Part shown: positions 3,296-60,962 of the stretch, piece after piece | Position numbering within the stretch: the first letter of the stretch is position 1 | Layout: the number at the start of each line of letters is the position of its first letter | Assembly: GCA_963666565.1 (NCBI GenBank) | Contig: OY762911.1 | Span: forward strand, 800,001 to 864,000 | Length of the DNA: 64,000 bases | Origin: Thermoanaerobaculia bacterium | GTDB lineage: Bacteria; Acidobacteriota; Thermoanaerobaculia; Multivoradales; Multivoraceae | Reading direction: 5' to 3' | Program-made: the position numbers and the translations under genes | Notes under the pieces: model-generated | Told to the model about the DNA's origin: nothing | Seen by the model: the letters and a program-made list of their open reading frames with translations, nothing else | Database searches by the model: none

Positions 3296-3333
3296 CGGAG
3301 GCGGCGCAGCGTAGCACGCGGGCGCCTCTTCCG

Positions 3334-3363
3334 TTGACGGGATCCATCGGTCCCTGCTAGAAC
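3334..3363 (+). promoter_or_regulatory. Putative sigma70 promoter of tRNA-Phe
   Basis: TTGACG-N18-TAGAAC with an extended TG, about 28 nt upstream of the tRNA. Confidence 0.5.
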
Positions 3364-3390
3364 TCCCTTCCCTCAGCCGCGTGCCGGAAC

Positions 3391-3466
3391 GCCCAGGTAG
3401 CTCAGTTGGTAGAGCACCTGACTGAAAATCAGGGTGTCGGTGGTTCGAATCCGCCCCTGGGCACCA
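3391..3466 (+). tRNA. tRNA-Phe (GAA)
   Basis: GCCCAGG/CCTGGGC acceptor stem, anticodon arm CCTGA-CTGAAAA-TCAGG, GGTTCGAATCC T-arm, encoded CCA. Confidence 0.98.
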
Positions 3467-3544
3467 TCCGCGCAGGTTCCTTGCCGCCTGCGGCGGCAGC
3501 GGGTCAGAAGACCCGCGCATGTATGGTCCGCCCCGCTTGTGCAA

Positions 3545-3816
3545 GGGCACTTTCCGGAGTTCCGGCGAGAGAGGTGTCGTTGCTTGCATGTATTCGGCCT
3601 GTTGTTGGGCGTCTCGTGGTTTCGAGCTCCCTGGCCCCGATGGAATACGCGCGCGTCGTCTCTTCTGTACACCCAGACGGCCTGTTGAATGGCCCTGCGC
3701 GGGTTCAGGCTCTCGACGCGCCGGTCCGACCTGTTTCGCCATCGCTCCGTTGTGTCCTCGCAACGACTTGGTGGGGCAATCCTCCTTGGTTGATTCGATG
3801 TGGATCGAGCCGCCTG
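3545..3816 (-). ncRNA. Predicted bridge/seek RNA of the IS1111-type element (ends approximate)
   Basis: On the minus strand: ACCCGCGCA (3704-3696) and CTGGGTG (3676-3670) flank a GGCC/GGCC stem and match the target halves; ATTCCAT (3646-3640) and ATACAT (3593-3588) flank a second GGCC/GGCC stem and match the donor junction. Confidence 0.8.
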
Positions 3817-4875
3817 CTACGCGGCCCGAGAGACCTTCTGCCGAGACCCGGCGAGGCGGTCGTCGCGGTACAGCTCGCCGCGGCGAAGCACCGCCCAGGC
3901 GATGCGGCCCAGCTTGTTGGCCAGTGCCACCGTGGCGACGTTCGGCCCCCGGCGCCGCTTGACGTCGAGCGCCCAGCCCTTCAGCCGCGTTCGCTCGCCC
4001 TTCGCCGCCGTGCGCAGGACCGCCCGCGCACCGTGGATCAGGAGCGAGCGCAGGTAACGGTCGCCGCGCTTGCTGATCCCGCGCAGCACCGTGCGACCCC
4101 CGGTCGAGTCCTGACGCGGCACCAAGCCCATCCAGGCCGACATCTGACGACCGCTGCTGAAAGCCCAGCCGTTGCCCACCGCCGCCACGATCGCCGTCGC
4201 CACGATCGGACCGATGCCCGGAATCGACATCAGACGCTGGCAGTGAGGGTTCTCCTTCGACTCCCGCACCAGCATCGCGGTCAGGTCCTCGACCTCCTTG
4301 TGGACCTGCATCAGAGCCTCGTACTGCATCCACAGCAGCGCGCGAAACTGACCCGGCAGCTCGCGCTCCGCGTCGCTCGCGATGTCGGGCACCGCCCGCA
4401 TGACCACCGCCCGGCCCTGACGCAGCACGATCCCGTACTCGCCCAGGAATCCCCGCAACTGGTTCACCAACTGCGTGCGACGGCGAAGCGCCGCCTCCCG
4501 GCTCCGATGAACCTGCTGAAGAGCACGCTGCTCCTTCGTCTTGTACGGCACGAAACGCATCGTCGGACGGGACACCGCCTCGCAGATCGCCTCCGCGTCG
4601 TGGTAGTCGCTCTTGTTCGACTTCACGTAAGGCCGCACGAACTGAGGACTCATCATCCGCGCGTCGTGACCCAGAGCGCTCAGCTTCTCCACCCAGTAGT
4701 GCGCGCCGCAGCTCGCCTCCATGCCCACCAGGCACGGCTCGAGCTGCACCATCAACTCCATCAGCCCCGACGCCTTCACCTGACGCTGAAACACCACCGC
4801 GCCCGACGAGTCCATCGCGCACACCTGGAACAGGCGCTTGCCCAGATCGATACCGACTCGAGTAACCTTCTTCAT
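3817..4875 (-). CDS. IS110-family transposase/recombinase
   Basis: RuvC-like DEDD residues GIDLGK, MEASCG, KSDYHDAEAI; C-terminal SIPGIG, GLVPRQDSTGG (catalytic Ser), ISKRGDRYLR, VALANK; GGAGG RBS. Confidence 0.97.
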   Translation of the reverse strand: MKKVTRVGIDLGKRLFQVCAMDSSGAVVFQRQVKASGLMELMVQLEPCLVGMEASCGAHYWVEKLSALGHDARMMSPQFVRPYVKSNKSDYHDAEAICEAVSRPTMRFVPYKTKEQRALQQVHRSREAALRRRTQLVNQLRGFLGEYGIVLRQGRAVVMRAVPDIASDAERELPGQFRALLWMQYEALMQVHKEVEDLTAMLVRESKENPHCQRLMSIPGIGPIVATAIVAAVGNGWAFSSGRQMSAWMGLVPRQDSTGGRTVLRGISKRGDRYLRSLLIHGARAVLRTAAKGERTRLKGWALDVKRRRGPNVATVALANKLGRIAWAVLRRGELYRDDRLAGSRQKVSRAA

Positions 4876-4959
4876 GGTCCGTCTCCTCCCTTGTTGGTTG
4901 GGAAAAACCCATTCTGGCCCTACAAGAGGCCGTAGAGGGCGGGGCGGACCATCCCATTA

Positions 4960-5124
4960 CCCAGTGCGGCGGCAGCGGGTCAGAAGACCCGCGCACCCAG
5001 TGCGACGGCAGCGGGTCAGAAGACCCGCGCACCCAGTGCGACGGATGCGGGCCAGAGGACCCCGCGCACCCAGGAGCGGGTCAGATGCGCACCCAGGAGC
5101 GGGTCGGGAGACCCGCGTACCCAG
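4960..5124. repeat. Tandem cluster of REP-like units, degenerating rightwards
   Basis: Two near-identical 36-nt units (GCAGCGGGTCAGAAGACCCGCGCACCCAGTGCGACG-like) followed by three degenerate units. Confidence 0.9.
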
Positions 5125-5275
5125 CCCGCTGCCCGGGGGCCGCCGGGAATCCGCAACATTTCCGCAGCAGCTTCCGAACTCCCCGGAACCGTGCCGAACG
5201 GCGGCAAGTAACGGCAAGCACGACAGTTAGCGCCGATCGGGCCCGACCGCTCCGCAACCGGCGGGATCTCTCGTC

Positions 5276-27424: not shown

Positions 27425-27451
27425 TGCCGGCGGGGACGCCGGCGCACCCAG
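27425..27451. repeat. REP-like variant with a different stem
   Basis: GCCGGCG-GGGA-CGCCGGC hairpin + GCACCCAG tail. Confidence 0.7.
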
Positions 27452-59487: not shown

Positions 59488-60962
59488 TCGTTCCTCCGTT
59501 GATCGCTGGGTGCGCCGGCCTTGCCGCCGGCATTCCGGGTTTGGCCGCGGGGCGCGCCTTGGCTCTCTGAATCGCCGGGCGCAAGCCAATCGATGACTGT
59601 CGGTCGTGGGTCGCCTTCCGCTTCGTCCCCGCCGGCCCGTTCGGCCGACGCCTCCACCTGCCACTCGTGGTCCGGCAGGTAGAGGCCGATGCTCCCGAGG
59701 GCCGTGCTCTCGGCCACCGTGAACCGAAGCGCTCGGCGGCGGTAATCGTACGCCCTGCCGTCGCGCGCGTGAACCGCCACGTCCACCGTGTACTCGCCGG
59801 GGGCCAGCCGCAGCTCGGGACAGACCAGCCGCACCCGCACCGGCCCGGAGAGGAGGCGCGGTTCGTAGCCGGCCAGGTCGGTGTTCGTGCCCCAGCAGTC
59901 GATGCCGCGGGGCGTCTTGACGCCGACGCCGAAGACGAAGTCGGAGAGGTTTTCCCGCGGCTCGACCTCGAGTTCGAAGGCCACCGCTTCCCCCCAGTGC
60001 AGGTGATAGCGCTCTTCCCGTTCCCCGCCGGCCAGCAGCCGGGCCGCCACGATCTCCGCCTGGCCCGAGCCCCAGCGGAGGGTCTCTTCGCCGCCGTCCG
60101 CCGCCGTCGGCACCTCGGCGCCGTCCCCGTCCGCGCCCCCGTCCGCGCCCTCCTTCGAGGCGGCCGCCGCGGCCGCGGACAGGCGGCGCCGGTCGTGGGC
60201 CTCGCCCTCGCGCGCCGCCACCGATTCCAGGTAGGCGTCGATGACCCGCCGGGTCGAGCCCAGGCCGCGGATGCGCCCGCCGTCGAGCCACATGGCGCGG
60301 TCGCAGATCTGGTCGATCAGCGCCATCGTGTGGCTGACCACCAGCAGGGTGCCGCCGCCGGCCAGATGCTCCTCGATCCGCGCCAGGCAGCGGTGAACGA
60401 ACTCCTCGTCGCCCACCGCGAGGACCTCGTCGACCAGCAGGATCTCCGGGTCGGTGTGGATCGCGACCGAGAAGCCCAGCCGGACGTACATGCCCGACGA
60501 GTAGTACTTGATCGGCTCCTCGATGAAGTCGCCGAGCCCGGCGAACTCCACGATGTCGTCGTAGCGCCGCTCGATGCGCCGCCGGCTCAGTCCGAGCAGC
60601 GCCCCGTTGATGTAGACGTTCTCCCGGCCCGAGATCTCCGGATGAAAGCCCGCGCCGAGCTCGATCAGGGCCGCGACCCGGCCGTTCACCGCGAGCTCGC
60701 CGGAGGTCGGCGGCAGCAGGCCGGCCACCAGCTTGATCAGCGTCGACTTGCCCGAACCGTTGCCGCCGATGATGCCCACCGCCTCGCCGACGGCGACCTC
60801 GAAACCGACGTCGGTCAGGGCCTCGACGACTTCGCCCGAACCGAGCCCGCCGGTCAGGCTGCCTTCGAGCAGCGCGCTCTTCAGCGTCCGCAGCCGGTAG
60901 CCGCCGGCGGTGCGCCGGTAGCGCTTGCACAGGCCGCTCGCCGCGATTGCCGGCGGACTCAA
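59484..60962 (-). CDS. wzt: Polysaccharide ABC exporter ATPase with a C-terminal Wzt-C carbohydrate-binding domain
   Basis: GGNGSGKST, ELGAGFHPEISGREN, YSSGMYVRLGF, LLVDEVLAVGD; C-terminal RWGSG...WGTNT...LAPGEY. Confidence 0.92.
   Translation of the reverse strand: MSPPAIAASGLCKRYRRTAGGYRLRTLKSALLEGSLTGGLGSGEVVEALTDVGFEVAVGEAVGIIGGNGSGKSTLIKLVAGLLPPTSGELAVNGRVAALIELGAGFHPEISGRENVYINGALLGLSRRRIERRYDDIVEFAGLGDFIEEPIKYYSSGMYVRLGFSVAIHTDPEILLVDEVLAVGDEEFVHRCLARIEEHLAGGGTLLVVSHTMALIDQICDRAMWLDGGRIRGLGSTRRVIDAYLESVAAREGEAHDRRRLSAAAAAASKEGADGGADGDGAEVPTAADGGEETLRWGSGQAEIVAARLLAGGEREERYHLHWGEAVAFELEVEPRENLSDFVFGVGVKTPRGIDCWGTNTDLAGYEPRLLSGPVRVRLVCPELRLAPGEYTVDVAVHARDGRAYDYRRRALRFTVAESTALGSIGLYLPDHEWQVEASAERAGGDEAEGDPRPTVIDWLAPGDSESQGAPRGQTRNAGGKAGAPSDQRRNE
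59506..59531. repeat. REP-like variant inside the wzt 3' end
   Basis: Minus strand GCCGGC-GGCAAG-GCCGGC-GCACCCAG, read as AGGKAGAPS. Confidence 0.65.

Follow-up and report, generated by a model that had tools for sequence, protein, structure and literature searches.

What sends a mobile element, copy after copy, to one short site at the edge of a repeat that its host genome carries by the hundred? The question is raised by an insertion sequence (IS) of the IS1111 type, 1440 bp long, that occupies positions 3520 to 4959 of the window (the whole stretch of DNA analysed here, 64,000 nucleotides from 800,001 to 864,000 of contig OY762911.1, assembly GCA_963666565.1, a Thermoanaerobaculia bacterium of the Acidobacteriota) and carries its transposase gene on the minus strand. 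An initial annotation made from the letters alone had proposed that the 3' non-coding end of this element encodes a bridge RNA, or seekRNA, programmed against the genome's own repetitive extragenic palindromes (REPs). Our analysis bears out all the structural details of that proposal and supports this RNA-guided reading, backed by covariation of the guides, and we consider it very probable that the element is an intact IS1111-group RNA-guided recombinase with guides for a target at the REP edge and for its own ends, where the RNA, the circle and the chemistry are understood by analogy.

We first describe where the element sits. The host genome, one contig of 4.79 Mb with 70.2% G+C, contains the element five times, with 100% identity among the copies over the full 1440 bases, and across the whole genome neither partial or decayed copies nor a second transposase of this family were found. 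All five copies lie in one orientation at (C/A)TGGG|TGCGCGGGT, such that in gene orientation the left flank reads CTGGG (four copies) or ATGGG (one copy) while the right flank reads TGCGCGGGTC in 5/5, and the flanks rejoin to an unoccupied 14-mer with one shared base. The split point GACCCGCGCA|CCCAG given by the initial annotation proved correct, with one base common to target and element that leaves the ends ambiguous by a single position (3519-4958 is equally possible). Insertion in a single orientation, at one specific site and without target duplication, as is typical of IS1111 elements, was seen in 5/5 own copies and in 45/45 insertions within the genus. Copies at unrelated sites, which that annotation had named as the finding to look for, did not occur, the site being common to 5/5 own copies. 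Unoccupied, the 14-mer CTGGGTGCGCGGGT is found at 526 places across the whole genome, and the ten further exact occurrences claimed for the window are all present at the positions given for them (0.00 expected, 100 shuffles).

These sites belong to a family with the marks of REPs, namely a short GC-rich palindrome in hundreds of copies, arrays, and a candidate cognate gene for a REP-associated tyrosine transposase (RAYT). In the consensus, CTGGGTGC leads into the hairpin GCGGGTC-N4-GACCCGC, and the genome holds 808 such hairpins, 676 of them with a GGGTGC lead. Four of the five element copies stand at the foot of a REP hairpin and one at a matching site without a REP hairpin. The description of the element as splitting a REP thus holds for insertion at the REP edge and fails for the palindrome, as the cut falls at the hairpin foot (CTGGG^TGC-hairpin) and not within it. 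At the window copy, the REP hairpin (3499-3516) together with GCA forms that portion of the split target which borders the element's right end (3499..3519), CCCAG (4960..4964) forms the other portion and borders the left end, and an adjoining REP array (4965..5130) contains unoccupied exact targets at 4987-5000 and 5023-5036. A rarer REP variant (CTGGGTGCGCCGGC) has 52 sites in the genome, for example at window positions 27438-27451 and 59506-59519, with 0 occupied.

The segments that would read these sites lie in the 297 nt after the transposase stop codon, where the initial annotation had placed the target guides and the donor guides alike. The 5' target guide ACCCGCGCA (3696..3704, minus strand) pairs with the top strand, in transposase orientation, of core plus right flank, TG-CGCGGGT, and corresponds to the right target guide (RTG) of IS621. 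It is followed in RNA sense by one spacer base, by the target-module hairpin GGCC-ATTCAACA-GGCC with its 8-nt loop (3679..3694, minus strand; GGCC-AUUCAACA-GGCC as RNA), by two spacer bases and by the 3' target guide CTGGGTG (3670..3676, minus strand; CUGGGUG as RNA), which reproduces the top-strand letters of left flank plus core, pairs with the bottom strand and corresponds to the left target guide (LTG). The 9-mer is complementary to TG-CGCGGGT and the 7-mer identical to CTGGG-TG, so that the two overlap on the TG core. Further downstream in RNA sense come the 5' donor guide ATTCCAT(CG) (3638..3646, minus strand; AUUCCAU(CG) as RNA), which pairs with the left-end ATGGGAT through one rU:dG wobble and corresponds to the right donor guide (RDG), then a second GGCC...GGCC hairpin with an inner stem (3596..3636, minus strand), two spacer bases, and the 3' donor guide ATACA-TG (3587..3593, minus strand; AUACAUG as RNA), which equals right-end tail plus core and corresponds to the left donor guide (LDG). 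Relative to their own hairpin, the donor guides keep the register that the target guides keep relative to theirs. In 5/5 own copies the 5' target guide is perfect against the flank. When the 297-nt end was dinucleotide-shuffled 20000 times, 110 shuffles contained the 9-mer, 103 contained the 7-mer and 47 contained the right-end tail's 7-mer, whereas 0/20000 contained both target guides in order and 8-40 nt apart. Two segments for opposite target strands, with core overlap and the top-strand match placed 5', are the arrangement reported for IS1111 seekRNAs (PMC11187229).

Nature has in effect retargeted this element within the genus. Together with the own copies, the insertions found in related genomes amount to 45 distinct full ones, of 13 element variants whose transposases are 66-82% identical, with the left flank CTGGG in 44/45 and ATGGG in one, and the right flank TGCGC in 45/45. 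Elements with the guide ACCCGCGCA were found at TGCGCGGGT in 19/19 insertions, whereas the element of a sister species, with the guide GTCGGCGCA and a transposase 79% identical, was found at TGCGCCGAC in 7/21 and at TGCGCCGGC in 14/21, the latter sites pairing with GTCGGCGCA by way of one rU:dG wobble. Between own and sister element, three positions have changed in both the 5' target guide and the target, and the covariation of guide and target that had been put forward as a check is borne out in 21/21 sister insertions, whose sites differ so as to match the changed guide. The supply of sites differs likewise, as the own 14-mer has 526 sites in the own genome and 0 in the sister genome, while the sister 14-mer has 52 in the own genome and 413 in the sister, where it is the main variant, and none of the five own copies is at the 52 sites of the other kind. 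One of the 21 sister-genome copies lies at a matching site without a REP hairpin. A further guide, GCCCGCGCA, is represented by three insertions with three different last bases. For GCCGCCGCA one insertion was seen, at TGCGCCGGC with one C:C mismatch, either because such a mismatch is tolerable or because the guide mutated later, once the element was in place. The sister genome holds 21 distinct full copies of its own variant against the 5 here, a four-fold difference in load. The same-genus alignment (A1, 10 sequences, 87% identity) varied too little for a test of structure, with 2/73 predicted pairs changed on both sides.

Evaluating the guides across a wider range of relatives, we scanned metagenomes with the transposase alignment, which revealed 80 loci at 43-52% identity. 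A sub-terminal repeat could be clearly made out in 51 of these, with the right end falling 200-330 nt past the stop codon, and 29 had no usable repeat or end. The final set comprised 49 elements including our own (48 non-redundant), all read with a fixed guide register on one common scaffold. The 5' target guide matched the right flank at a mean of 5.75 of 7 positions (cross-pairs 2.76), with at least 6 of 7 in 30/48, and the 3' target guide matched the left flank at a mean of 4.25 of 5 (cross-pairs 1.42), on a transposase tree along which the left flank changes 42 times. For the donor side, the first five bases of the 3' donor guide equalled the right-end tail in 48/48 (cross-pairs 4.05 of 5), and the 5' donor guide matched the left end at a mean of 5.90 of 7 (cross-pairs 5.19), with ten relatives carrying its exact partner ATGGAAT. 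All four means were reached by 0/10000 permutations. The consensus structure of the 49 elements (alignment A3), from which we predict a bridge/seekRNA scaffold of 162 nt (3582..3743, minus strand), has 19 pairs in five helices, among them the hairpins of the target and donor modules, a small inner stem, and an outer stem that encloses the target-binding module, with the donor-binding module next in line and the guides occupying unpaired stretches. Paired cells make up 92.7% of this fold, a share that 0/500 shuffles attain (64.4% in shuffled alignments) and that drops to 45% once partners are shifted by 1, and 264 cells have changed on both sides versus 86. In the target hairpin (helix 4), 94.3% of cells are paired and 3/4 pairs have changed on both sides, and in the donor hairpin (helix 5) the figures are 99.0% and 2/4. 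Single-sequence folds of the non-coding end were set aside (z -1.54, with 20/200 shuffles as good, and z -0.50, with 54/200). Such a fold pairs the donor guides with each other (GUAUUC/GAAUAC), and because this pairing is broken in relatives the donor guides are better read as unpaired.

The donor guides were the part of the initial annotation that one sequence could carry least, and they are also where the best-surviving rival explanation applies, namely that the RNA reads the target only while the protein finds the element ends through the sub-terminal inverted repeats, such that the donor guides would be scaffold, or a copy of an end motif, unpaired with DNA. In favour of it, the seekRNA paper describes target matches only and found an 82-nt RNA enough for ISEc11, and it allows that end recognition in IS1111 may differ from that in IS110 (PMC11187229); furthermore, strong conservation of the 5' donor guide and of the left end keeps the covariation signal small (5.90 vs 5.19), the core is not tracked by the final two bases of the 5' donor guide, and phylogenetically independent pair tests were too few for significance (4/4, p 0.125; 3/3, p 0.25). 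We nevertheless judge it unlikely, as the register is fixed over 48 distant relatives and the tail match in 48/48 spans six tail types that, on a FastTree tree of the 49 transposases, change at least 14 times with the donor guide the same as the tail in every element, following it even in the rare CCAC for CCAT (L139, L147). The 5' donor guide shows isolated compensatory cases of its own (ATGGGGT/ACCCCAT, ATGAAAT/ATTTCAT and ATGGTAT/ATACCAT), the donor guides share the hairpin register of the target guides, and donor-binding bases are reported in predicted IS1111 bridge RNAs (Durrant et al., PMC11208160). The donor claim of the initial annotation is thereby upheld, with the match of the donor segments to the joined ends, a feature of bridge RNAs, resting here on covariation.

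The remainder of the element is in keeping with an intact member of the IS1111 group. In gene orientation it starts with TAATGGGATGG and ends with CCATACA, and it carries sub-terminal inverted repeats of 14 bp each with terminal extensions of 7 and 3 nt, the left-end repeat (4939..4952) beginning 7 nt inside the element end and the right-end repeat (3523..3536) being followed, in transposase orientation, by the 3-nt tail ACA, a layout that recurs in relatives. The repeat length falls within the 7-17 bp reported for IS1111 (PMC11208160), and sub-terminal repeats with short extensions together with a longer downstream non-coding region (297 nt past the stop codon, against 84 nt ahead of the start) are traits of the group. 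The transposase, or recombinase, gene (3817..4875 with the stop codon, minus strand) encodes 352 aa from ATG, just above the range of ~330-350 aa given for IS1111 (PMC11187229), and it scores 72.6 bits against PF01548 (cut-off 29), 84.4 bits against PF02371 (cut-off 21.3) and 341 bits against the NCBIfam model NF033542, 'IS110 family RNA-guided transposase' (cut-off 140). Alignment places the DEDD residues at D10, E53, D90 and D93, which are invariant in the transposase alignment (A2) along with G250, L251, P253 and G259, and a GL-P----TG motif holds T258-G259, with T258 aligned to the Ser of the SG in ISCro4, such that the acidic residues and the Ser/Thr-Gly in G--P----S(t)G that define the IS110 family are both present. 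By analogy with published enzymes, from which the catalytic role is taken, DEDD and Thr-Gly would be the catalytic residues. Among solved structures the protein has remote matches confined to the C-terminal domain (ISCro4, E 1.3e-9; IS621, E 2e-9), and in a plasmid collection the best plasmid-borne relatives were 48.8-49.7% identical, with no relative above 60% identity and none bearing an IS name.

We propose that the element works as follows, with transcription and processing of the RNA, protein binding, the circle and the chemistry modelled on ISEc11, ISPa11 and IS621. The 3' non-coding end would be transcribed with the transposase gene and give rise to a bridge/seekRNA of two modules of the same design, each a short hairpin between two unpaired guides. 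In the target module, the 9-nt 5' guide would pair with one strand of TG-CGCGGGT and the 7-nt 3' guide with the other strand of CTGGG-TG, such that together they would read a 14-bp site with a 2-nt shared core; the donor module would read the left-end ATGGGAT and the right-end tail ATACA at the joined ends of a circle. The recombinase, with its DEDD domain and a Thr-Gly in place of the catalytic Ser-Gly, would then exchange strands at the core, and the element would enter one way round and without target duplication. In this host the 14-bp site marks the border of the main REP family, which provides 526 sites outside genes.

The two junctions of the inserted element bear on the exchange itself, as their cores differ, with TA at the left junction (4958-4959) and TG at the right (3518-3519). 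With x for the first core base, the guides have xG at their core positions, yet 30/48 elements including our own carry xA on the left and mostly xG on the right; the left core follows the donor and the right core follows the target. Joining the ends by computation revealed a candidate junction promoter, TTGCAC-17-CATAAT, with a -35 box at 3539..3544 (minus strand) and a -10 box that would arise in the circle alone, from 3521-3520 and 4959-4956, and would span the joint. In 38/49 relatives, TTGnnn is likewise followed after 16-17 nt by a -10 box (at most 1 mismatch), mostly TATAAT or TACAAT, that spans the joint. A promoter scan of the linear element returned 0 promoter-like sites. The unmatched core A completes the -10 box (TATAAT or CATAAT and not TATGAT), and we conjecture that it may be kept for the sake of the promoter.

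Several observations weigh against the RNA-guided reading of the element, and some of them would suit the rival view that the element is a fossil, once RNA-guided and now immobile in its five copies. Only 5 of the 531 perfect or occupied sites are filled, and in the contigs of the public runs that we examined (four runs of one study, one of another) there was neither a circle joint nor a clean empty-site joint; among the public runs listed, none with RNA contained the stretch. The fossil view can further draw on the linear element, in which no sigma-70-like promoter was found, and on a donor core at odds with the guides. For the guide reading itself, the own 5' donor guide is an imperfect partner of its left end, given one wobble and two final bases that are at variance with the TA of the left junction. 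Perfect matches of the target guides are far from universal among the relatives (16/48 for the 5' guide, 32/48 for the 3' guide), which may come partly from alignment register and partly from the fact that only one insertion was seen per element, and three of the 51 loci (L111, L115, L154) were dropped as no junction could be placed. No Rfam model reached threshold on the non-coding end (scan of 3300-5200, E up to 1), and single-sequence folds did no better than shuffles. Lastly, an 82-nt short seekRNA, about the size of the target module, sufficed to move ISEc11 (PMC11187229), and the donor module may for that reason be dispensable.

Immobility is nonetheless improbable in our judgement, and more so than a protein that finds the ends unaided. 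The five copies are 100% identical over 1440 bp with the 352-aa frame open, partial or decayed copies are absent from the genome, the catalytic positions are kept, the guides are perfect on the right side of all five sites, and the sister species carries 21 distinct full copies; a linear form without a promoter is moreover what one expects of elements that rely on a junction promoter. Since the copies are identical and the depth of the element is ~5x that of its flanks in contigs of three public runs, the element was probably active recently. Two kinds of contig joint were looked at and rejected. One contig skips from 3519 to 4967, which does not fit an exact empty site and is probably another REP locus, and the joints at which contigs appear to go back are REP neighbours elsewhere, with other letters lying between.

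That the protein instead recognises the REP hairpin, and that the non-coding end resembles a REP through a captured REP piece, might seem to gain from a target within a palindromic repeat and from two target guides that can pair mutually in the fold, but it is scarcely credible given that the two halves are separated by a conserved hairpin, run in opposite senses and do not form one REP piece, that the same scaffold holds unrelated guides in 48 relatives, each matching its own flanks, that 1/5 own and 1/21 sister copies are at matching sites without a REP hairpin, and that the 52 other-kind REP sites in the own genome are unused.

Returning to the RNA-guided reading, the switch between the sister species would connect the guide with the history of the repeat. 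The main REP stem goes from a GCGGGTC-type to a GCCGRCG-type between the two, and the 5' target guide has changed at exactly the three matching positions; the guide would in that case be tracking a REP family kept by a RAYT-type gene. The left core being always donor-type and the right core target-type suggests that the strand exchanged first fixes the outcome. Taken together, we tentatively offer a joint reading, possible though not the likelier course, in which the guide tracks the host REP family with its RAYT-type gene, promoter strength is traded against guide pairing at the core, and the asymmetric cores mean that the first-exchanged strand decides the outcome.

The gene in question encodes a Y1-transposase (PF01797, 36.3 bits, cut-off 23) at 748983-749858 of the own genome, outside the window, has an HUH-like NHIHAL motif and is the only one of its kind there. 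It is probably the RAYT of this REP family and would be what spreads the REPs. At its 3' end the open frame extends into four forward REP copies (749711-749817), an inverted copy lies at 749908, and three of the five IS copies are within 55 kb of it. Of the exact targets, 117/526 are located at 0.4-0.8 Mb of the genome. The REP arrays, beside the element (window 4960-5130) and across the genome, run head-to-tail at spacings of 36, 27 or 28 nt, unlike the alternating orientation typical of bacterial interspersed mosaic elements (BIMEs).

Several known systems resemble this one in part. RNA from the region downstream of the gene in IS1111-type elements is reported to bind the transposase and to be reprogrammable, including in the REP-targeting ISPa11 (PMC11187229), and bridge RNAs are predicted in the right end of 93.0% of IS1111 elements (Durrant et al., PMC11208160). 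ISPa11 of Pseudomonas aeruginosa is a close precedent, as it too is of IS1111 type, targets a host REP and has the same guide order, and its seekRNA co-purifies with the transposase (PMC11187229), whereas our element is known from its sequence, belongs to a different phylum and uses a different REP. The novelty that the initial annotation attached to the element is on that account overstated, REP-targeting IS1111 elements with a seekRNA being known from ISPa11 (PMC11187229), while its standing as a clear further example holds. Natural re-direction has a precedent in ISEc11 and ISXne4, whose transposases are 72% identical and whose guide segments are replaced on a kept stem (PMC11187229), as in our own and sister pair (79%). 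ISEc11 and ISXne4 share 3/13 target bases, whereas our pair differs at three positions of one guide and, unlike them, follows a switch of the main REP variant of the host.

IS621 of Escherichia coli, of the IS110 group, for which four guides and a shared core have been defined and REP targeting reported (Durrant et al., PMC11208160), shares with our element the DEDD recombinase, PF02371 and a REP target, and its bispecific RNA has a target and a donor loop with two guides each and a 2-nt core overlap, as does the RNA predicted here (PMC11208160, PMC11208158). Guide lengths are 8-9 nt (5') and 4-7 nt (3') in IS621 and 9 and 7 nt in our element, and a promoter forms at the joined ends of IS621, as against a candidate one here (PMC11208160, PMC11208158). 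The two differ in that IS621 has its RNA upstream of the gene and ours downstream, that the sub-terminal repeats of ours are long (14 bp), that the proteins match over the C-terminal domain only, and that IS621 has a symmetric CT core at both ends where ours has TA on the left and TG on the right. The order of guide strands, in transposase orientation, is reversed relative to IS621, as is stated for the IS1111 group (PMC11187229). If the DNA is read on the other strand, we infer that the arrangement matches that of IS621, with the long 5' guide on the bottom strand and the short 3' guide on the top strand. ISPpu9 and ISPpu10 of Pseudomonas putida are IS110-family elements that also occupy REPs and form circles, of which ISPpu10 uses a junction promoter and ISPpu9 has a strong promoter of its own as well as the small RNAs Asr9 and Ssr9 (PMC12288879); no counterpart of these was seen in our element, for which no search aimed at them was made. 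Among the listed papers on IS1111 in Acidobacteriota, judged by title and abstract, we found nothing on this topic. The literature on RAYTs together with IS110 and REPs yielded general REP/RAYT papers, and that on the host lineage nothing relevant.

Against this background, the element is a clear new example of the mechanism described in 2024 and not a new mechanism, and the understanding of how such elements work is unchanged by it. What it adds is an extension, to an uncultured lineage of Acidobacteriota at 70% G+C, of a mechanism whose proof came from Proteobacteria, and a clean natural case of retargeting through three guide bases. The 49-element comparison further yields a register rule for the subfamily (target guides of 9 + 7 nt, donor guides of 7 + 5 nt plus core), with which the target and both ends of any subfamily member can be read from sequence alone, and which helps the annotation of IS ends and the choice of orthologues for bridge-recombinase engineering, although the same guide register for IS1111 may already appear in the supplements of PMC11187229 or PMC11208160. 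Use of the element as a programmable tool, which the initial annotation suggested, is a reasonable prospect, for which the element stands as a candidate.

Two minor observations concern the surroundings and the spread of the element. A marine-metagenome contig from a second study carries a variant with 21 differences and one missing base over window 3510-4968, which means that a close variant exists outside the source study. Beside the right end, at a distance of 56 nt, lies a tRNA gene (3391-3463, plus strand; Rfam 74.4 bits), a tRNA-Phe by reading of the anticodon loop (GAA), which the Rfam scan of 3300-5200 matched along with a sub-threshold chance match on the same tRNA, and upstream of it a long minus-strand open reading frame looks, from its translation, like purH.

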